Positions 28,760 to 41,127 of a stretch of 64,000 nt of DNA are shown here, piece by piece; position 1 is the stretch's first letter, and each line of letters begins with the position of its first letter. Both the position numbers and the translations under genes were made by a program. The stretch comes from Chthoniobacteraceae bacterium (lineage in GTDB: Bacteria > Verrucomicrobiota > Verrucomicrobiia > Chthoniobacterales > Chthoniobacteraceae), in assembly GCA_037190965.1 (NCBI GenBank), contig JBBCKI010000003.1, positions 1-64,000 on the forward strand, read 5' to 3'. The notes under the pieces are model-generated. The model saw only the letters and a list, made by a program, of their open reading frames with translations. It made no database searches and was not told the origin of the DNA.

Positions 28760-31700
28760 TCAAAGGTCGCCGGCTGTCCATTTGACCGCAGCATCGAATA
28801 GCAAGTACCCATCGGTGCCAAGGGTGGCCCCATTAGCCAATGGGAATGCAACACGACGGCTCGGTGCGATTAAACCGAGCAGACCGGCATCCATTTCATA
28901 AGAGAAGATTCCAGCCTTGCCGGGAACACCAGCGATTTCCGCAACAGTCTGAGCGCTTGGGAGTGGTATCCCCCACGCATGATCGGTGGGAGCGCTCGTC
29001 AAGGCGACTGTCCCGCTTAGTCCAGCTGCTAAAGAATCGGCTGGATTCGAGATGGTGACATTAGTGGCTCCTGTCGTGATCCCATAATCCACGGCAGCCG
29101 TGGCACCCGTCATTCCCAAAGAGGGGTAGATGCTTCCTCCCCAGCAAAGAATGGGCACTTCACAGAGGCTGAAAGTGGATCCAATTGCAGGTGAGGAAGA
29201 GGAGGAAATAACGAGCAGATCCTTTCCAATAGCGTCGTTGAGGACAACGGCACCATCGTCGATCACTGTTACATTGTAACCGAGATTTTCCATTCTTAGC
29301 TTCAATGCGGCATCCTCAGCGTTTGGAACGGGGGTTCCCGTTACAAAGAGGATCTCTCCTGGAATGGTGGCTTTCTGGACAGTCACTGCTGAGGGAGCGG
29401 AGACTGCAACGCATCCATTGCTATCAGTCGCCTGAGCCACGAAGGTATACTCACCTGCCGGAATGTCGGATAGGGAGAGAGAGTATGGCGAGGTGAGGTC
29501 TTCGCCCAGTTTGTTTCCTGCGCGGTCGAAGAATTCCACCTTGTCGATGGTGGCTCCAGAGCCGGATGCTGCCGCGACAAAGCTAAGGGAGCCGGGTGCC
29601 GGGGTACTCGTCCCATTGAGCGGAGCAGTCAGCGCAACCGAGGGTGGCGTTAGGAAAAAGACGTTCGGCTTGCCATTGAGAATGGTGCTGTGGCTCGTGA
29701 TTGAGTTAAAGACGTTGTTCCCCATCCCAATCTTGAGATCGACGTTTGATGCAACAGCCCAACTTGCGGCCAGTGCAGTGCCTCCATTGGCGTTGAATGT
29801 GTTTCCATTCATGGAAAGCCAAAACACTACAGGAATGCTGGTATTTGAATTCGTTGGGTTCGCCAAATTAATGGCGCGAAAGTTCGCATTTGAGGAATTG
29901 ACGACGTTGTTATGAAATGAGATCCGATTGAAGTCATTTGTAACAGTCAGGAACTTCGTTCCACTTGTGGTGATCGTATTGCCTTCGAGATGGACTTCTT
30001 GCAGGGGGCTCCAGGCGCCTGTTTCAACGGTTGTGTTCGTGAGAGTGCATCCCCTGAAATTGAGGGTGGTCTTCTGCAATCGAAACGATGAGTTGACTAC
30101 CTCGGACTCGACGACTTCCGATGGAAGCGTCATGTTTGCCGTCAGAAATGTGCTGTTTTCAACATAGCAACGCTCCAGACTGAAGCGGTTGGTACTGGCA
30201 ACGGCGCCGTTGACATTACAATCGACCAACCTCGATCTTACCGGACCGCCGAGGATGTCGCACTGATAGAAATAGCCGAACTTAAAAGTGGTTGGATCCG
30301 TGTTATGGGAAACAGCTCCCCCGTAAAGATTATTATTCTTGATGCAATACTCACGATCGAGCCAGATCAGGTTGTGTGTTATAGCCAGCCTTGTTTCCCC
30401 TAGGACGTCGTTGTTGTAGACTCGAAAGTGAACCATTGTTTTGTACGGGCCGATATCAAAGGTGGCTTTTTTGAAGACGTTATCGCGAACGACAAAATTT
30501 GCCGACCGCGTCGTGGAATAGTACCCCATGACGTTCCGTTCGACGACAAAGTTGTGCCCAGCAAAAGCGACAAATTCATTGACTGGGTTTGTCCCGAAAA
30601 CATTATCGTGAAAATAGAGATCCTGCATTAGATCCCAGCCATCTTCCGCGTCGAAAGCACATTTCGCCATGGCCCAGCCAACGTTATTGAATGTGCATCC
30701 TGTTACGGTAAGGTTATGGAAGCCGGAGGGCACCATCCCAACGCACCGGACATCTTGAATATCGAGATCGATGAGATCGCAGTTATAGGGAGTCCTGATG
30801 TTGAAAAGTGAGACGCTGTCATTCGGAAGAGCGGTGGCACTGTAGAGGGTGAATTTTGCATAGCGCGCATTCGCTGGCGGATACATCCTCCGGTAGAAAT
30901 GACCTAATGTAGAACCAATGTAATTGTTGGATACATCGTAAAATGCGGCCCGGTAGATCCAGTTGTCCGGAAGTGGGTTACCTTGGTAACCAAGGTATTT
31001 CCCCAGTTGGAAAAATCCTTTGGAGCCCATGTAGGTGGAGATATCGACGGCGGTGTTGCAAGCCGTGCGGGTTGTCGAGGGAACGAGAAGTCCTGTCGTC
31101 TCGTCAATCTCGCCGAGTGTGAATGCTCCCACCGATTTGGGCGGGTTGTGACTAATCCCTACGTTAACGGGGCGCCGGGCATATTCGAAGCTGGTTGCAA
31201 CCCCATAGCCCGTGATTTTTTTAACCACAAGGTTCTCAAAGGAACAGTACTCAGCCCCTTGTCCCAAGAGAATCCCCACCAACCATTCGCTGTTCGGGCT
31301 GACACTGAAATTGTGGTTATCAAGATCTCCCTCGATGGTTCCGTTTTCGACGTGTGAATCGACGCAGTGGGCGATCTCCAGGATGTATCCCTTATCAAGA
31401 GAACTTGGATTGAGTCGGAGAGTGGAACCGTTGAGGTCAAGTGTCATCCCTGTGACCATCTTGACTGTACTGTTTTCGTCGATCCGATAGATACCCGTAG
31501 GAAGAATGACTTTCCGATAGCCGTTAGTCCCGGCCCAAACGAGCATGTTATTGAGCCCGCTGGTGGTGGCAACGGGATTCGTGTCGTTCGAGTAAATGCC
31601 AAAACTATTAAAGAGATCAACAGTAGTAGGACTATAAGTTTGACCTGCTGTAATGGGGTGTGTAACAGGATCTACCACTCGAAAGTTTTGGTACAGAACA

Positions 31701-32080
31701 TGCGACTTTCGCCCCTGTGAATCCGTGACCTGAATCGCCAGGCGCACTTCGCTCTTCGGGGTGGTGAAAACCGGGAGCGTGATAGTGTGGTCACCTCCTC
31801 TTACGGTCCGATTCTGATAATGCACGCCGTCAATCGAGAATGAGACCGTGAGTTTCTCGCTGCGGTCATTAAAGCGGTAGTCACGATTTTCATAATCGGT
31901 GACGTAGAAGTTTAAGGTCTGACGTTCGCCGACATTGATGGTTTTCTTTAGAGAATTAAGGGATACGTAGGGAGTTCGATTCTCAAATGCGAGCTCTGCC
32001 CTCAAGGGGGCTATTAACAAGAGAAAAAACGCCAGAAGAACTGGCACCGTTAATTTTAAGTAGAGATTCTGGGAGCTCAT
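28760..32080 (-). CDS. Large secreted right-handed beta-helix protein with Ig-like and C-terminal accessory domains
   Basis: Signal peptide; LPTGIYRI...LDLNGSTL pectin-lyase-like start; Asn-rich beta-helix repeats; PSVALTAP...KVEFF...GEYTFVAQATDSNG Ig domain. Confidence 0.75.
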   Translation of the reverse strand: MSSQNLYLKLTVPVLLAFFLLLIAPLRAELAFENRTPYVSLNSLKKTINVGERQTLNFYVTDYENRDYRFNDRSEKLTVSFSIDGVHYQNRTVRGGDHTITLPVFTTPKSEVRLAIQVTDSQGRKSHVLYQNFRVVDPVTHPITAGQTYSPTTVDLFNSFGIYSNDTNPVATTSGLNNMLVWAGTNGYRKVILPTGIYRIDENSTVKMVTGMTLDLNGSTLRLNPSSLDKGYILEIAHCVDSHVENGTIEGDLDNHNFSVSPNSEWLVGILLGQGAEYCSFENLVVKKITGYGVATSFEYARRPVNVGISHNPPKSVGAFTLGEIDETTGLLVPSTTRTACNTAVDISTYMGSKGFFQLGKYLGYQGNPLPDNWIYRAAFYDVSNNYIGSTLGHFYRRMYPPANARYAKFTLYSATALPNDSVSLFNIRTPYNCDLIDLDIQDVRCVGMVPSGFHNLTVTGCTFNNVGWAMAKCAFDAEDGWDLMQDLYFHDNVFGTNPVNEFVAFAGHNFVVERNVMGYYSTTRSANFVVRDNVFKKATFDIGPYKTMVHFRVYNNDVLGETRLAITHNLIWLDREYCIKNNNLYGGAVSHNTDPTTFKFGYFYQCDILGGPVRSRLVDCNVNGAVASTNRFSLERCYVENSTFLTANMTLPSEVVESEVVNSSFRLQKTTLNFRGCTLTNTTVETGAWSPLQEVHLEGNTITTSGTKFLTVTNDFNRISFHNNVVNSSNANFRAINLANPTNSNTSIPVVFWLSMNGNTFNANGGTALAASWAVASNVDLKIGMGNNVFNSITSHSTILNGKPNVFFLTPPSVALTAPLNGTSTPAPGSLSFVAAASGSGATIDKVEFFDRAGNKLGEDLTSPYSLSLSDIPAGEYTFVAQATDSNGCVAVSAPSAVTVQKATIPGEILFVTGTPVPNAEDAALKLRMENLGYNVTVIDDGAVVLNDAIGKDLLVISSSSSPAIGSTFSLCEVPILCWGGSIYPSLGMTGATAAVDYGITTGATNVTISNPADSLAAGLSGTVALTSAPTDHAWGIPLPSAQTVAEIAGVPGKAGIFSYEMDAGLLGLIAPSRRVAFPLANGATLGTDGYLLFDAAVKWTAGDL

Positions 32081-32370
32081 AAAAAAACACCATATTTTTT
32101 TCAACCGGATGATGCGGGAGAATTCCCAACGCTGAGAACGCGTCAACACAATAGCAAAATCGATATTACAAAAAGGATCTATTAGTCAAATGCATTTTCA
32201 CATATAGCCACCCTATAGAACTATCGGGCTATACCCGACAACCCGCATAGGTGCTTCTAGTGTTATATTTGGCAAACTCCTTAAACCTGAATTTCCGATC
32301 TTGGAGCAGGCGAAATCATGCAGAGCTTGAAGCAGAAACGGTTAAGAAGAAGCGAAGCCCCATCTCTTTT

Positions 32371-34647: not shown

Positions 34648-34791
34648 TGCGCCGTATTGAAGCCGAATCCCACGGTCGGCGCGAGCGCAATTGCACTCCG
34701 CCAGCGGCCTCTCCAAGACCCTCCGGATAAAACATCGTCCGGCGATTTTCGCTTGCGAACATCGCGTTCGAGAGGCAGCAATCATGGAGCG

Positions 34792-35919
34792 ATGCGTCCT
34801 CCCCGCCCCAACTTCCTCCCCTTTCTGGCGATCTGCTGCGCCGGCCTGAGCATCGGCCTGATCTTTTGGGCCCGGAATCGCGAGATCCCCAGAGGAGACG
34901 TGAACAGCCTGCCCACGCTTCCCGACCAAACTACCTCATCTTCCGGGGAGACCGCCCCTCCCCAACCAACTGAGGCCCCTCCGGAAACGCTCCCCTCGCC
35001 CGACGAAACCACGGCCCCAGGCGAGCCGACCGCTCCCGAGCCTCCGGAACCCGTCCGCCCTTCGGAAGAGGAACTGACCGGGCCGCTTCCAACCCGGGAC
35101 CCGGGCGAACAAGTCGCCAAAGCACCCGCGCTCCACGCGCCACTGGCCGCGGCCCCCACCGCTCTCGATCTCCCCTCGCTCGCGCAGCAACCCAAGCTCT
35201 GGCCGCCTCAAGTCACGCTTCGCGAGGCGGTCCGCTTCCCGGTCTTCCGCGACGGCGTGGAAAGCGGCAATATCCAGGTTCCCGCCGGTACCGTCGTCTT
35301 GCTGCGCAAGATTCACGCGAACGGAAAGCTGGAAGTGGAACATCTTAAATGGCTGACCACCGTTCCGGCGACGTCCACCGATTTGCTGGCGCGCATCAAG
35401 CAGGCCTCGGCCCCAGCGGCCCCGACGGCTCCAGCGGCCCCGACGGCTCCAGGGACCACCACCGCCTCACAAGCTGCGAAGCCGACCGCCACTCCTGTGC
35501 CGGCAGGTCCACCTCTTCTGGCCATCACCGTCAAACGGGACCGCCGCAGCGAAAACGGCCCCGGCGGCACCCCGCGCAGAATATGGCATTTCAGCGTCAG
35601 CGTGCAGAACCCCGGCAAAGAAAAACGCCCCAAACTGCAAGGCCACTTCTTCGCCATCACGCGAACCGCCGAAGGCGCCCTCGTCCTTGCCGCGACTGAA
35701 AAGCTGACCTGCGACCTCGACGCCAACGGAGAGATCACCCTCACCCCGCCCCCTCTCGATCTCGACGACTCCCGTCCCCTCGACAGCTTCGCCGTCGTGT
35801 TCCGCGATGCCTCCGGAGCCATCGCAGGCTCCACTTCCACCCGGGAATCGCTCACCAAAGACTGGGCAACCCTGGAAGCGATGTCGCTGGGAACGATCCT
35901 CCCCGCAGCTAAGCCCTAA
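34792..35919 (+). CDS. Hypothetical membrane-anchored Pro/Thr-rich protein
   Basis: N-terminal TM helix, Pro-rich linkers (internal 18-bp tandem repeat near 35412-35452), two small globular segments; GC-rich codon usage. Confidence 0.65.
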   Translation: MRPPRPNFLPFLAICCAGLSIGLIFWARNREIPRGDVNSLPTLPDQTTSSSGETAPPQPTEAPPETLPSPDETTAPGEPTAPEPPEPVRPSEEELTGPLPTRDPGEQVAKAPALHAPLAAAPTALDLPSLAQQPKLWPPQVTLREAVRFPVFRDGVESGNIQVPAGTVVLLRKIHANGKLEVEHLKWLTTVPATSTDLLARIKQASAPAAPTAPAAPTAPGTTTASQAAKPTATPVPAGPPLLAITVKRDRRSENGPGGTPRRIWHFSVSVQNPGKEKRPKLQGHFFAITRTAEGALVLAATEKLTCDLDANGEITLTPPPLDLDDSRPLDSFAVVFRDASGAIAGSTSTRESLTKDWATLEAMSLGTILPAAKP

Positions 35920-35959
35920 AGAGAAGCGAACCGCCCTGGGCCGTTGGTCACCGCCGCTT

Positions 35960-36140
35960 GTTGACTCATAATTAGGACACCCTGGCGGCTTTGTTTTTGG
36001 TGGTTGGTTTGGTTGCCCTTGCGGCGTTCCGGAGCGTAGCGGAGGGATACCCGCAAGGGTAATGGCATCTACCGCTTCCTCCCGCAGGAGTTCGGTGCGG
36101 TGCTCCAGAAGCGGTCTTCCAGGGCCCAATTTCCTTCATC
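35960..36140 (-). mobile_element. Putative 3' remnant and end of a decayed IS transposase
   Basis: Minus strand reads ...CCTCCGCTACGCTCCGG...GCCAGGGTGTCCTAATTATGAGTCAAC, resembling the C-terminal (RVS*) and end region of rve-type IS elements. Recalled pattern, not searched. Confidence 0.4.
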
Positions 36141-36355
36141 ATCGCAAAGGATCTAGGCTTCCTAGCTGGCTTTCGAGTTTCATTTTCTCCTCCTTTGGCA
36201 GCTCTCCCCGTCCAGAAGCCGTTGTGCGAGTGTGCGTCCCTGGCTACGGATTTGACGCCTGCCTTCGCGGTGGGGCGGAAAATCTCGCGTTGGGAATATT
36301 ACAATTTGCGGCTTGATAAAAAGTTCATAACATCTACATACACCCGGCATCGCGT

Positions 36356-36910
36356 ATGGAGAACGCCCACATACTTCCGATGGCTGAAAGGAGCTTTGAT
36401 CCCGTATATCACGGCACATCCCAAGAGAATTGGGAAAGTATCCGTCAGCAGGGGCGATTTGTCGTGGCTAAAGCCCGGATGGGGAAGTCACCGGGGTATT
36501 TGGGCGATGGTGTTTATTTCTATGAGTCTTCTCACGAAGACGCTTGGATTTGGGCGAAGGACGAAAAAAGATTCCCGCTTCCAGTCGTTGTCAAGGCCTG
36601 CATTCAGGCACTTAGATGCATTGACTGCTGCGATTGGAGTGTGGTGAAAGCTTTGGATCGAGCATATGTCAAGTTTGAGAAGAGGATGCGGAATGAGGGC
36701 CGAGAGCCTAAAGAGCCTTACTTTTTTCATTGGCTGGGTCGGCACGTGCTCAAAGAAATTGACTGTATTCGGGCCTGTCAAAGGCGCCCCAGTGCTCGCC
36801 GTGAGCTTTTATGGTCGCGGTTTGAAAGCAATCGCCTTGTGATTTGTGTGAAAAAGCCGGAAGTCATTGCAAAATTTGAAATTTTTGAGGAAAATCAGAA
36901 AGACTTATGA
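36356..36910 (+). CDS. ADP-ribosyltransferase-like toxin (CmdT-like) of a toxin-antitoxin-chaperone operon
   Basis: VYHGTS and GYLGDGVYFY motifs of HYx-class ARTs; C-terminal ICV strand; first gene of an overlapping three-gene operon ending in a SecB-like gene. Alternative start 36380. Confidence 0.75.
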   Translation: MENAHILPMAERSFDPVYHGTSQENWESIRQQGRFVVAKARMGKSPGYLGDGVYFYESSHEDAWIWAKDEKRFPLPVVVKACIQALRCIDCCDWSVVKALDRAYVKFEKRMRNEGREPKEPYFFHWLGRHVLKEIDCIRACQRRPSARRELLWSRFESNRLVICVKKPEVIAKFEIFEENQKDL

Positions 36911-37410
36911 AGGCGGAAGACATTGAAGCCAGATTAAACGCAGCTTTTGACGGGATGTCCGATGAGGAGTTCCGCGAGACGCTCGACGACGAAGAGATCG
37001 AGTACTTCTCGACGGTTGAACCCTTGGGGATTATCCCAAGCGCATCGCTTGTCAACGTCAATGTGGCCGCCGGTGCGGCGTGGGCAGCCTTGTTGGCCGA
37101 TTCCTTGCGCCGGAATGCAAGGGTGCAATGCGAGTTTATATCCGCGCACCTGCACTCTGATGCAGAAAAACAGCATTCTGACGCGTCGATAGAGTGGCTT
37201 TCTTCTGTTTTGAAAGATTGGTTGGGGGCGAAACCCTTGGAGAAGGCGATTGAGATTTCTTACGTTAAGCCCAATGATTTTTGGAAGTGTGAGCGCAGCG
37301 CAAAAGAGACCGATTGCTCCATTCCCCGAGTCCCCATGAAGGCATTTCAAGATACTTCAAGACCTGGAAAGGAGGCAGCAGAGAATGAACATCTCGCCCT
37401 TGCAGCTTAA
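36907..37410 (+). CDS. Putative antitoxin (CmdA-like) with C-terminal ssrA-like degron
   Basis: ATGA-coupled to the toxin; acidic helical N-terminus; C-terminus AAENEHLALAA; lies between toxin and chaperone. The role is inferred from position. Confidence 0.65.
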   Translation: MKAEDIEARLNAAFDGMSDEEFRETLDDEEIEYFSTVEPLGIIPSASLVNVNVAAGAAWAALLADSLRRNARVQCEFISAHLHSDAEKQHSDASIEWLSSVLKDWLGAKPLEKAIEISYVKPNDFWKCERSAKETDCSIPRVPMKAFQDTSRPGKEAAENEHLALAA

Positions 37411-37846
37411 ACATAGTTGGATTGAACGGCTCGATTTTCAATGCGCCTCTTTCGGGGAAGATGTGTCTGATACGTCAGATGTATCTGTAGAGGTTGACTA
37501 CGGACAGCATCCGTCGAACCCGCAGGAGTGGATGGTTGGGCTCACTACAGTCATTTCAAATTCTAACGAAGAAGAGGTGGCGAAATATTTGGCAACGGTC
37601 AAATTTGTTGGACTATTTCGAGTCGATGCTGAGTTGGAAAGAGAGAAGCAGTTGAAGATCGTGGCAGTTAATGCGCCGTCAGTCCTTTTCTCCGCGACGA
37701 GGGAGGTACTTGTGCAGATAACAGCTCGAAGCCCTCTTGGGCCTATTGAGCTCCCTACGCTTTCTTTCTTGGGGCACAATCTCACTGAGCCTGATGCGCC
37801 AGCGGAGGCGCGGGAAGGCGGCGTTGAGTCGCAGGGGAAGGCTTAG
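37385..37846 (+). CDS. SecB-like chaperone (TAC chaperone, CmdC-like)
   Basis: SPLQL N-terminus; YLATVKFVGLF strand; VNAPSVLFSATREVLVQITARSPLGPIELPTLSF matches the SecB NAP.ILFP..R......T.......LP..NF signature. Confidence 0.85.
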   Translation: MNISPLQLKHSWIERLDFQCASFGEDVSDTSDVSVEVDYGQHPSNPQEWMVGLTTVISNSNEEEVAKYLATVKFVGLFRVDAELEREKQLKIVAVNAPSVLFSATREVLVQITARSPLGPIELPTLSFLGHNLTEPDAPAEAREGGVESQGKA

Positions 37847-37859
37847 TTCTAAGAATACC

Positions 37860-37900
37860 AACAAACCCCGGCCTTCCAGAAGGAGGTCGGGGTTTTGTTT
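37860..37900 (+). terminator. Rho-independent terminator of the TAC operon
   Basis: CCCCGGCCTTC...GGAGGTCGGGG stem followed by TTTTGTTT, 14 nt after the stop. Confidence 0.7.
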
Positions 37901-38049
37901 AATGGGGTGTAGGCAAAACCAGCTCGGCGGCGGGCTATCGCTGAGGGTATTCACTGAGGCGCATCTGGTGGATCGATTGTTATTGCTGCTTTCTTCGCCA
38001 GCTCCCTATATCGCTCCAGATAGGTGCAGAGGAACACGTCAACAGGGAT

Positions 38050-38291
38050 GGCGTGCCGCTGGAGGGAGTCCAGAAGCTCCCTGATAGCGTAGCGGCTCCG
38101 GCGCGCCGCGTTTTCCGCGCCTGCCTTTACTCCGCCGCTTGATGCCGAGCAGCACCTTATTGGGTGCTTCCGGCCCCAAGCGGTCACCTTGGCGAACTCT
38201 CAAGCAGTTCGCCACGGGCTCTTTTCCCCGTCATTCGCGCGTATCTCTCGCGCATCTTCTCCGTGTATCCCTCAATGCTTGCTTCACTCAT
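38050..38291 (-). pseudogene. Frameshifted N-terminal fragment of an IS transposase (rve/integrase-core, ISNCY-like)
   Basis: From ATG 38291: MSEASIEGYTEKMRERYARMTGKRARGELL / EFAKVTAWGRKH / NKVLLGIKRRSKGRRGKRGAP / SRY, joined across about three frameshifts. Resembles the RY.......K..LLDEF..VTG..RK.A..L...RG....Y N-terminus of this family. Confidence 0.6.
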
Positions 38292-38455
38292 GGGCCATGG
38301 TGTCTCCATTTTGTGATGGCAACGGGCCCTTCCTGCCGACTCAAGTAACTATTTCGGTGTCCGCTTCAATAGGCAACACGCCCGGCAACTTCCTTGCAAA
38401 AAATACTGGATTTCCAATCCCCCGAGCCTTATACATCGCCCTCCACTGATTTTGG

Positions 38456-38530
38456 GCGCGGTTAGCTCAGCGGTAGAGCGCTTGCTTCACACGCAAGAAG
38501 TCACAGGTTCGAACCCTGTACCGCGCACCA
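38456..38530 (+). tRNA. tRNA-Val (anticodon CAC)
   Basis: Acceptor GCGCGGT/ACCGCGC, D-arm AGCTCAGCGGTAGAGC, anticodon arm CTTGC-TTCACAC-GCAAG, T-arm ACAGG-TTCGAAC-CCTGT, encoded CCA. Confidence 0.97.
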
Positions 38531-38572: not shown

Positions 38573-39898
38573 TCACTCAGCGGCTCCCACCACCTCCTCT
38601 ACCCCCAACCGTAGCGCTTCCACACACTGCGCGATCTGCGCTTCGCTCACGCAATACGGAGGCATGAGGGTGATGGTGTCGCGGATGGGGCGGGTCAACA
38701 GGCCATGCTTTCGGGCGGCGACGCAGACGCGGGCGCCGGTTTGCTCCTGCCAGGGGAACGGCTCGCCGCTGGATTGAGTGACCTCAAAGGCGGCAATAAA
38801 ACCGCATTGGCGAACATTGCGGATGTTGGGATGGCCGTCAAGGGTCGCGAGCGAACGGGCGAGTTGCGCGATTTTCTCCTGAACCCGATCCATCACGCAC
38901 TCCTCGCGGAAGATGGCAAGGTTGGCCAGGGCAGCAGCGCAGCCGAGTTGATTGGCCGTGTAGCTGTGGCCGTAAAAGAAGGATTTCAGCTCCGCATAAT
39001 CGCCAAGAAACGCTTCGTAGATTTCCTCGCGAACCAGCGTTGCCGCCAGCGGCAGGTAACCGCCGGTCAGCCCCTTGGCCAGCGCGACGAAATCCGGGAT
39101 GACCCCTTCCCGCTCGCAGGCAAACATCGTTCCGGTACGGCCAAAACCGGTCATCACCTCGTCGACGATGAGATACACCCCGTGGCGGTCGCACCAGGCA
39201 CGCAGCCGCGCCAACATTCCCGCAGGCCAGATCTGCATTCCCGCCGAGCCCTGGATGAGCGGCTCGATAACCACCGCCGTCACTTCTTTGGGGTCGATCC
39301 GGTCCTGATTGCAATCTCCGGCCCCGGAACGCGCCTCCAGTTCATCCATGGAAGCGACGTGCACCGTGGGAAACTGATGCGCGGCGAAACGCCCATGAAA
39401 CGCGCTGATCCCCCCAAGGCTGCTCGCCCCCATGGTGTCCCCATGATAGGCGTTGGCAAACGCGATGAAGCGCATCCGCTCCCCTTCCCCCCGCTGCTGG
39501 CGGGACTGGACGGCCATCTTCAGGGCAGCCTCGATGGCGGTGCTGCCGTCGTCGGAAAAGAAAACGCGGGTCAGTTCGGAAGGCGAGCCATCGGGATGGC
39601 TCCAAAGTGCCACCAATTCCTCCGCGAGCCGGATGGCGGGCGGATTGGTAAAACCGAGAAATGAAGTGTGCGCCACCTTGTCGAGCTGCTCCCGGATCGC
39701 GGCGTTGATACGCGGGTGGCGATGCCCGTGCAGGTTCGTCCAGATGGACGAATTCCCGTCGATATACTCGCGCCCTTCGCTGTCGCGCAGCAGCGTCCCC
39801 TCGCCCTCCACGAGAACAAGCGGTTCATGCCCCGGGGCGCACCAGTCGCGCATCTGCGTGAAGGGGTGCCACGAATGGCGCTTCTCGGCGTCGATCAT
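38573..39898 (-). CDS. bioA: Adenosylmethionine-8-amino-7-oxononanoate aminotransferase
   Basis: WHPFTQM, YHGDT, DEVMTGFGRTG, AKGLTGGYLPL (PLP Lys), GHSYTAN. Confidence 0.95.
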   Translation of the reverse strand: MIDAEKRHSWHPFTQMRDWCAPGHEPLVLVEGEGTLLRDSEGREYIDGNSSIWTNLHGHRHPRINAAIREQLDKVAHTSFLGFTNPPAIRLAEELVALWSHPDGSPSELTRVFFSDDGSTAIEAALKMAVQSRQQRGEGERMRFIAFANAYHGDTMGASSLGGISAFHGRFAAHQFPTVHVASMDELEARSGAGDCNQDRIDPKEVTAVVIEPLIQGSAGMQIWPAGMLARLRAWCDRHGVYLIVDEVMTGFGRTGTMFACEREGVIPDFVALAKGLTGGYLPLAATLVREEIYEAFLGDYAELKSFFYGHSYTANQLGCAAALANLAIFREECVMDRVQEKIAQLARSLATLDGHPNIRNVRQCGFIAAFEVTQSSGEPFPWQEQTGARVCVAARKHGLLTRPIRDTITLMPPYCVSEAQIAQCVEALRLGVEEVVGAAE

Positions 39899-40152
39899 TC
39901 CCCGCCCCGCGCCTCGATCATCTTTTCAATCAGGACGACGTCCTCGTAGGCCGCGCGGCGGCGCTGGTATTTGCGGAAGAGGACGTCGCGGAGTTCGATG
40001 AGATCCTCCATGAGCGGCGGCTCGTGATAAGTCCAGTCAAGGTCGCTCTTGAGCTTGGACTGAATGCGCCAATCGCCCCCGAATTTAATGGCCCGCACCT
40101 CGCGCTTTTCGCCTTCGGCGGTCCTCTCTGTCCAAATGTGCTTGTTGTGCAT
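39895..40152 (-). CDS. Small hypothetical protein coupled to bioA
   Basis: 85 aa, MHNKHIWTERTAEGEKREVRA...KYQRRRA; ATGA overlap with the bioA start; typical codon usage. Confidence 0.7.
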   Translation of the reverse strand: MHNKHIWTERTAEGEKREVRAIKFGGDWRIQSKLKSDLDWTYHEPPLMEDLIELRDVLFRKYQRRRAAYEDVVLIEKMIEARGGE

Positions 40153-40191
40153 GGCTGTGTCGTTGAGATTTGCGGCCAAACTTCTCTCACT

Positions 40192-41127
40192 TTGAAGGAA
40201 CTTGGCAAAATCATTTTGTATCTTGTCGCCACGGTCGTCCTTGGCGCCCTCCTCGCACCGCAACTTTATTGGGGGCTGATGTGGCTCAACGGCCATGGCC
40301 TGCTCCTCAATTTGGCCGATGTCGAGTTTCAGCGGGTCTTCCACCGCGGCATCCTGGTGGCCGCCATCGTTCTACTGTGGCCTCTGGTGAAATGGATCCA
40401 GATTCCCCATATCCGCGGGCTGGGGCTTCGACCGAACCCGCTCCGCTGGCAGGACCTGGCGATCGGCTTCCTCGCCTCGTTCCTCGTCATGGCGTTGCTC
40501 GCCGCCGTGTTGATCCATCTGGAAATTTACACGCTACGGAAATCGCCCAAATGGGATGAACTGAGAGCGGTCATGGTTTCGGCGGTGGTGGTTTCCCTTT
40601 TGGAGGAAGGCTTGTTCCGGGGCGCGTTCCTGGGGCTCCTGAACCGGACGATGCGCCCGTTCCTTTCGCTCTTTGCCGTCTCCTCGATCTACTCGGTCGT
40701 GCATTTTCTGAAACCGGACAAGGAACCCGTCACCGACGCCGTCATCACCTGGACTTCGGGTTTCCCTCTGCTTCTGGAAGCGCTGGAGCCCTTCAAATTT
40801 CACAACCTGTCGGAATTCCTGATCTTCTTCGGCGGCTTCGCCACCCTCTTTGCGGTCGGCTGGATCCTCGGCTGGACGCGCCTGAAGACCGGCTCTCTCT
40901 GGATGGCCATCGGCCTTCACGCAGGCTGGATCCTCGGCAAGATGGGCCTCGGAAAGATCGCCCGGCGCAAAATTACCGACACCCTTCCATGGCTCGGGGA
41001 GGACATCACCATCGGGCTGGTTTCCCTCGGCATGGTCATCCTCACCGGGCTGCTCGTCTGGTACTGGATCGGCAGGATTCGCAAAACGCCTCATGAACAT
41101 TCCGTGGCCCCTGCAAAGGTTGTTTAA
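40192..41127 (+). CDS. CPBP (CAAX/Abi) family intramembrane glutamic protease
   Basis: EEGLFRG, H and HAGW motifs; multiple TM helices; probable TTG start. Confidence 0.85.
   Translation: MKELGKIILYLVATVVLGALLAPQLYWGLMWLNGHGLLLNLADVEFQRVFHRGILVAAIVLLWPLVKWIQIPHIRGLGLRPNPLRWQDLAIGFLASFLVMALLAAVLIHLEIYTLRKSPKWDELRAVMVSAVVVSLLEEGLFRGAFLGLLNRTMRPFLSLFAVSSIYSVVHFLKPDKEPVTDAVITWTSGFPLLLEALEPFKFHNLSEFLIFFGGFATLFAVGWILGWTRLKTGSLWMAIGLHAGWILGKMGLGKIARRKITDTLPWLGEDITIGLVSLGMVILTGLLVWYWIGRIRKTPHEHSVAPAKVV

Follow-up and report, generated by a model that had tools for sequence, protein, structure and literature searches.

The three genes at positions 36356..37846 of the window, the whole 64,000-nucleotide stretch of Chthoniobacteraceae DNA that we analysed, resemble the ADP-ribosyltransferase (ART) toxin, antitoxin and SecB-like chaperone of the CmdTAC anti-phage systems of Escherichia coli. 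They raise the question of whether the operon is simply another CmdTAC or whether its parts have different histories. We favour, at a probability of roughly 0.7, a toxin–antitoxin–chaperone (TAC) abortive-infection module that would work like CmdTAC through its ART, LAA and SecB parts, and whose degron-plus-chaperone cassette would have originated in a RelE-type TAC; this reading draws on sequence comparisons, structural models and analogy with E. coli systems. The ORF coordinates confirmed the three overlapping genes of the original prediction, all on the + strand, with 4 bp shared by genes 1 and 2 and 26 bp by genes 2 and 3. The features of the locus are as follows.

36356..36910, + strand: toxin gene 1, CmdT-like ADP-ribosyltransferase, 184 aa (ORF call, PADLOC, AF2, hhalign)
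36617..36634, + strand: CIDCCD, a version of the family's CLDL beta-strand motif (alignment columns; strand E76-90 in the model)
36907..37410, + strand: antitoxin gene 2, CmdA-like, 167 aa (ORF call, antitoxin profile, AF2)
37393..37410, + strand: C-terminal LALAA-stop degron of gene 2 (identity to the end of the host tmRNA tag)
37385..37410, + strand: 26-bp overlap of genes 2 and 3 (degron and chaperone start on the same bases)
37385..37846, + strand: chaperone gene 3, SecB-like, 153 aa (Pfam SecB, trees)
37863..37905, + strand: intrinsic-terminator-like hairpin with a T tail (14 pairs, 8 of them G-C)
35920..38390, no strand: low-GC lineage-specific insert, approximate extent (comparison with congener G1092, locus L217)
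38456..38530, + strand: tRNA-Val(CAC), flanking landmark (tRNA call)

The operon is a low-GC insert that was recently gained next to tRNA-Val, with approximate boundaries; it sits between a conserved ORF and the promoter region of the tRNA. Its GC content is 0.506, lower than that of the flanks (0.623 and 0.612), as had been noted, and than the genome-wide 0.59; 1.9% of equal-sized genome windows (n=8248) have GC as low, and GC3 in the operon is 0.51-0.58, compared with a median of 0.72 in long ORFs. In congener G1092 the operon is missing, and ubiD, tRNA-Val(CAC) and a shorter version of the upstream ORF are neighbours, with ~160 bp from ORF end to tRNA, which identifies the operon as a recent gain beside the tRNA. 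This empty-site arrangement was seen in one of the five fetched congener regions, the other four being rearranged or ending early, and a search for gene-1 homologues found none in the five congeners. No structured RNA or att repeats were found around the insert, and no prophage or defence genes were identified among the scanned neighbours. The terminator that had been predicted for the operon was found 3' of gene 3, its hairpin, at 37863-37895, being the longest of seven terminator-like sites in the region (3.2 +/- 1.6 in shuffles). Adjoining gene 1 we found no promoter consensus, and 5' of it no clear ribosome-binding site. All three reading frames are intact and keep their conserved residues. 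The host is verrucomicrobial, with Verru_Chthon_A over its cut-off and a tmRNA tag that matches that of Akkermansia. Contigs from a public run, possibly of the source sample, span the operon with zero differences, and in another run from that study coverage was limited to parts of genes 1 and 2.

Three other ORFs of the window drew attention. The upstream ORF (34657-35919, + strand) is Pro/Ala-rich, has a hydrophobic N-terminal segment and no Pfam match, and has shorter homologues that adjoin ubiD in three congeners. A second low-GC patch (28760-32149, - strand) holds a 1129-aa ORF with a Big_7 Ig domain, whose product is presumably a secreted beta-helix protein. A 149-aa ORF of no known family (39895-40344, - strand) lies beside bioA in most relatives examined.

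By sequence and predicted structure, gene 1 is an ART-fold homologue of CmdT. Two checks that the original prediction had proposed came out in part: PADLOC matched gene 1 to PD-T4-9_A (CmdT) weakly (E=6e-4) and gave no PD-T4-9_B match for the antitoxin, and Foldseek returned nothing for the toxin at E<=0.001, with ART-fold proteins heading its list. HMMER found 136 gene-1 representatives, the nearest 39% identical, which marks the outcome of word-index searches, where gene 1 and gene 3 each retrieved only themselves, as a limit of sensitivity. Among the 108 of these 136 homologues that were picked for near-full length (alignment A1), 96 matched PD-T4-9_A; weak matches to this model also occurred in 4 of 400 genomes from the class of G401. 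With E. coli CmdTAC represented by stand-ins, namely a Vibrio phage locus annotated PD-T4-9_A/B/C and two plasmid loci, the A1 profile matched all three stand-in toxins at 34-48 bits over most of their length, and hhalign aligned A1 with the PD-T4-9_A-annotated phage protein over 152 columns (prob 96.8). The AF2 model of the toxin (pLDDT 91.5) had its best fold matches in MbcT/NatT (Z 9.4) and PARP1 (Z 8.5), Z differences below 1 being ties. ESM Atlas returned unnamed look-alikes of gene 1, one set of which was 18% PARP, and the family profile had its best, weak matches among solved-structure sequences in PARP10. The toxin has a net charge of +5. A RES-Xre NAD+-degrading toxin–antitoxin pair, similar in fold alone, was ruled out by the lack of any RES or Xre match in Pfam and by toxin motifs of the H-Y type.

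Related toxins also occur in other settings. A large sister group (L021-L045, L065-L079, L207-L212) carries an HGC...HIQ motif with Gln at the third position, in most cases without a SecB in the nearest 1.2 kb; 3 of 34 of its loci (L026, L027, L038) have a downstream two-helix ORF of 58-73 aa that is like a tail-less antitoxin head. A CmdT-like toxin and a SecB are found together in a Methanothermococcus record (L071), and the genome of Methanocaldococcus jannaschii, an archaeal control, has a match to the PD-T4-9_A model too.

The YHGT, GDGVYF and CIDCCD motifs are present in gene 1 as described in the original prediction. H19, G50, Y54 and A63 are invariant in A1 and W66 is nearly so, and H19 and Y54 are invariant in all 45 chaperone-linked toxins. 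H19, Y54 and W66, which we take to have the roles at the NAD site that they have in PARP and diphtheria-toxin structures, are intact in the gene 1 toxin. At the third catalytic position the toxin has V162, where each of the three stand-in toxins has Q. In a set of 98 non-redundant toxin loci, from which 13 at contig edges were set aside, this position was hydrophobic in 31 and Q in 14 of the 45 SecB-linked loci (query included), and Q in 34 of the 40 loci without SecB. Thus, the missing third catalytic residue stood as an observation and fell as an oddity: judged from these alignments, E/D/Q has truly been lost from the third triad position, but as a subfamily trait. With Val there, the toxin may use another acceptor or be less active; it is likely to be an active ART. 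The supposedly unusual Cys cluster CIDCCD turned out to be the family's CLDL strand. Across the 108 aligned homologues, C88 is conserved in 101 and D90 in 94, position 91 holds L in 81, and C92 varies; strand E76-90 of the AF2 model spans the start of the motif. A metal-binding cluster was rejected because C88 is the lone conserved Cys there.

The middle gene has a CmdA-like architecture, with a head predicted as two helices, a flexible tail and an LAA end like that of SsrA. Gene 2 had no match to an HTH or any other Pfam family at E<0.1, and nothing in ESM Atlas. The lack of an HTH, noted before as a peculiarity, is shared by CmdA: according to the available text of the ECOR22 report (PMC11618068), ECOR22 CmdA is without an HTH, is predicted to have two N-terminal helices and an unstructured tail, ends in LAA and is ClpP-dependent. 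When the 17,183 ORFs of the genome were scored with a profile built from 43 antitoxins of related ART-SecB loci, gene 2 excluded, gene 2 came out on top (E=0.0011, residues 3-42). In the AF2 model, helices 3-15 and 19-28 have pLDDT >90 and the tail is mostly <70, with low-confidence helices at 53-106, and is like a chaperone-addiction segment; residues 1-40 have a net charge of -11. The related antitoxins have a median length of 99 aa, compared with 167 aa for gene 2. An hhalign comparison of the gene 2 family with canonical CmdA gave a prob of 0.6, and PD-T4-9_B matched none of 16 family members tested, a model that also misses the antitoxins of two canonical loci.

Gene 2 ends in LALAA, just as the host tmRNA tag AESNDLALAA does. 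An LAA ending is found in 5 of 5273 genome ORFs of 150 aa or more, and 34 of the 43 related antitoxins end in AA. The genome encodes clpX (over cut-off), and in both E. coli systems the LAA/AA end of CmdA and ClpXP are reported to be required (available text of PMC11618068 and bioRxiv 10.1101/2024.02.24.581848). Bases 37385..37410 encode both the degron, NEHLALAA-stop, and the start of the chaperone, MNISPLQL. Because the degron and the start of the chaperone lie on the same 26 bases, a degron-plus-chaperone cassette would move as one piece. The same-register degron/start overlap was found in 8 of 31 RelE-type TAC loci versus 0 of 44 other ART-type loci, and the two closest RelE-type antitoxins with the shared register end in GNEALALAA and TNEALALAA. 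Degron-over-start overlaps recur in RNase-type TACs at L273:1065-1523 (a viral contig), L150, L152, L003, L004, L006, L007, L151 and L158.

Gene 3 bore out its predicted SecB signature (Pfam SecB, 32.3 bits; cut-off 26) and is the sole SecB in the genome. It scores far below the NCBIfam cut-offs for housekeeping SecB and lies outside the solitary-SecB clade; a housekeeping SecB was ruled out by clade, NCBIfam scores and the overlap with the antitoxin. Counting its own genome, gene 3 had matches in 27 of 401 genomes of the phylum and 20 of 401 of the class. From a subset of these matches we retrieved 33 non-self loci, 32 of which have no ART and instead carry Gp49-like or MqsR-like toxins, with HTH antitoxins where checked. 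Pfam confirmed Gp49 for 7 toxins and an HTH in 5 of 5 antitoxins tested; 'MqsR-like' is the default label for the remaining toxins, 6 of 6 tested being without a Pfam match. The single ART system among the retrieved loci (L046/L159) has a canonical CmdC-type chaperone. In a second phylum, the gene-3 search matched 30 of 301 genomes, and of the best 7 matches to the gene-3 clade profile none lay beside an ART and 5 lay beside Gp49 or HTH genes. On CmdC models gene 3 scores E 4e-6, within the range of RelE-type chaperones (5e-8 to 0.03) and far weaker than ART-linked ones (3e-38 to 5e-13). In BLAST with gene 3, the top 26 of 75 non-self chaperones were all RelE-type.

To place the chaperone, we built trees on rows subsampled from 76, with four long branches omitted; one of them, of 51 rows, also took in canonical CmdC, an outgroup and more RelE-type rows. 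Gene 3 grouped with the RelE-type (Gp49/MqsR-like) chaperones at 98/97 in the 50-row tree and at 100/97 in the 51-row tree, rooted on solitary SecBs; 4% of 200 bootstrap trees held the RelE-type chaperones together without it. The toxin falls in a clade of 19 mainly Desulfobacterota TAC toxins (SH-aLRT 96; quick tree, 51 rows), and the chaperones of that clade form a separate clade (99/98 in the 50-row tree and 100/99 in the 51-row tree), in a pairing comparison that leaves out the loci of the four closest toxins (P0002, P0005, P0014, P0020). It is therefore probable, on sequence grounds, that the operon is a natural hybrid, formed when a RelE-type TAC supplied a cassette of degron plus chaperone to a toxin and an antitoxin head.

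That the operon is an ordinary, divergent CmdTAC whose genes were inherited together, and that host-lineage sampling and long branches produced the placement of its chaperone, is the less likely account, although several results leave room for it. In AU tests, trees that joined gene 3 to the chaperones linked to the nearest relatives of the toxin were not rejected (p=0.066 and p=0.090), nor was one that joined it to all ART-linked chaperones (p=0.64); this last constrained tree exceeded the quick tree by 7 lnL. The 'delta' chaperones, which are ART-linked, form a weakly supported sister group (87/79) of the RelE-type clade, the chaperone alignment has just 146 columns, gene 3 is a long branch, the bootstrap of the 51-row tree had not settled, and the RelE-type rows had been fetched by likeness to gene 3. 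However, the two careful trees, the CmdC-model scores, the BLAST rank and the register of the junction agree with each other in setting gene 3 among RelE-type chaperones, and the other verrucomicrobial ART-TAC that was found, L046, has its canonical CmdC-type chaperone far from gene 3.

The hybrid reading has precedents in part. Mixed pairings of chaperones with toxin–antitoxin pairs and TACs in Verrucomicrobia have already been published (PMC3581621, available text), and an engineered CmdTA-HigC hybrid works and broadens defence (bioRxiv 10.1101/2024.02.24.581848, available text). In the literature that we searched, neither a natural ART-TAC with an RNase-type chaperone nor an overlapped degron is described; Dataset S1 of Mets et al., on SecB neighbourhoods, may hold such hybrids. 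The CmdTAC architecture, mixed pairings and verrucomicrobial TACs are thus already known, and the sequence comparisons suggest as new the union of a toxin and a chaperone of different TAC families, with a shared degron/start overlap.

Is the operon then still to be classed as CmdTAC? The published rule for calling CmdTAC asks for a CmdT homologue, a second ORF and a SecB-like third gene (PMC9519451; PMC11618068), with CmdA excluded from the calling by the authors (PMC11618068), as the available texts have it. The operon has all three and so is filed as CmdTAC-type. Toxin followed by SecB within 1.2 kb was found in 44 other non-redundant loci, 43 of which have an antitoxin called between. Two features outside the calling rule set the operon apart: V162 departs from the E/D/Q third residue of the CmdT logo (PMC11618068, available text), and gene 3 stands apart from the CmdC clade and is no CmdC orthologue. 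Neither the RelE-fold toxin nor the HTH antitoxin of HigBAC and MqsRAC is present. CmdT homology, ART fold, antitoxin profile and SecB together support, from sequence and models, the predicted divergent CmdTAC-type system with two tested departures, third residue and chaperone clade; of the three grounds on which the original prediction had expected another target or trigger, the absent HTH and the Cys cluster fell away and the third residue held. That prediction had overlooked both the degron that resembles SsrA and the separate ancestry of the chaperone.

Some related loci depart from the three-gene pattern. On two metagenome contigs (L102:2465-3735 and L113:1265-2612), a CmdT-like toxin and a CmdA-like antitoxin without an AA degron precede a 138-140-aa non-SecB gene; these third genes share 55% identity, match nothing in Pfam or PADLOC and possibly represent a different third partner of CmdTA. 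On a viral contig (L166:1864-3365), a 343-aa ORF joins a CmdT-like toxin to its antitoxin ahead of a SecB, as a fusion or an assembly slip. One chromosome (OY759599.1; L055 and L056) carries two near-identical CmdTAC-like operon copies ~1 Mb apart.

By analogy with E. coli CmdTAC, the antitoxin head would help the toxin to fold and would block it, and a chaperone tetramer would grip and shield the antitoxin tail. A newly made phage structural protein would compete for the chaperone, freeing the antitoxin, which ClpXP would degrade via its LAA end. The toxin would then use NAD+ to mono-ADP-ribosylate single-stranded RNA, most likely mRNA, which would stop translation and abort the infection. 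With a chaperone that probably comes from the RelE-type lineage, the trigger protein is more likely to be set by that lineage than by CmdC. We regard the TAC switch itself as very probable from the sequence, and an anti-phage role, by analogy, as likely. The original prediction had taken a non-toxic gene 1 as grounds for refutation; according to the available text of PMC11618068, ECOR22 CmdT alone is non-toxic and its folding needs CmdA, so a toxin-alone test would mislead.

RNA is probably the toxin's target, again by analogy. It is unlikely that the same chaperone-gated switch acts on something other than mRNA adenines, such as NAD+ itself by depletion (as in RES/MbcT-like toxins), RNA ends, DNA or protein, even though MbcT/NatT head the fold searches and the family's best, weak matches among solved-structure sequences are to PARP10. 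The fold ranking involves ties and the motifs are H-Y, not RES; the toxin is homologous to CmdT over most of its length, and both CmdTs assayed in the literature, so far as the available texts go, modify mRNA. The Gln-to-hydrophobic change seen at V162, shared by most TAC-linked toxins, might allow other acceptors. Mono-ARTs with a hydrophobic third residue stay active, and some act on RNA, RNA activity being described for PARP10/11/14/15. A stress-response, addiction or decaying module without an anti-phage role, in which any unfolded-protein load titrates the chaperone, is still more improbable. TAC was originally framed as stress-responsive (PMC3581621, available text), and such a module would fit the lack of identified prophage or defence genes nearby and of a promoter consensus or clear ribosome-binding site at gene 1. 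Set against this are the intact frames with their conserved residues, the patchy distribution (0 of 5 congeners) and the presence of related toxins on 5 viral contigs, 3 of these with SecB. Moreover, the E. coli TACs assayed in the literature, two CmdTACs, HigBAC and MqsRAC, defend against phage (including PMC9519451, available text).

Evidence for the modularity of TACs has so far consisted of an engineered hybrid and of what mixed pairings imply. The locus would add a natural case with a concrete junction, indicating how sensor and degron can travel together, and would allow a direct check of whether the phage trigger is set by the chaperone alone. It also draws attention to a large and widespread subfamily of CmdT, marked by a hydrophobic residue at the third site and weakly detected by profile tools, for which RNA is a candidate substrate. 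We lean towards a natural sensor-swap hybrid into which the overlapped cassette was grafted, the chemistry of the toxin subfamily possibly differing from that of CmdT. Should the hybrid origin be removed, the locus would be another CmdTAC-like system in a new host.

Among known systems, the operon is closest to CmdTAC (PD-T4-9) of E. coli ECOR22 (PMC11618068) and O112ab:H26 (bioRxiv 10.1101/2024.02.24.581848) in gene order, as given in the available texts, in an ART toxin that is homologous over most of its length and retains H and Y, in an antitoxin that has no HTH, begins with two helices and continues into a flexible tail closing with LAA, and in a SecB-like third gene. Unlike CmdTAC, its toxin has Val in place of E/D/Q at the third site, its antitoxin is longer (167 aa) with no detectable PD-T4-9_B match, its chaperone belongs to another clade, and it adjoins tRNA-Val with no prophage genes seen among the scanned neighbours. 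With the RelE-superfamily TACs (HigBAC, MqsRAC and, in the same phylum, the Gp49/HTH_3 and MqsA-like systems L150, L152 and L003) it shares the chaperone clade and, with those of its phylum, an antitoxin end of NE.LALAA or similar and the 26-bp degron/start overlap, whereas their toxins are RelE-fold RNases and their antitoxins bear an HTH. RES toxins such as MbcT and NatT and the catalytic domains of PARPs share the ART fold (Z 8-9.4), but at 8-14% identity, without RES residues in gene 1 and with other partners. The engineered CmdTA-HigC of Mets et al. (bioRxiv 10.1101/2024.02.24.581848, available text) places an ART toxin–antitoxin pair under an RNase-type TAC chaperone, as the present operon probably does; the operon differs in being natural and in that its degron seemingly arrived with its chaperone.
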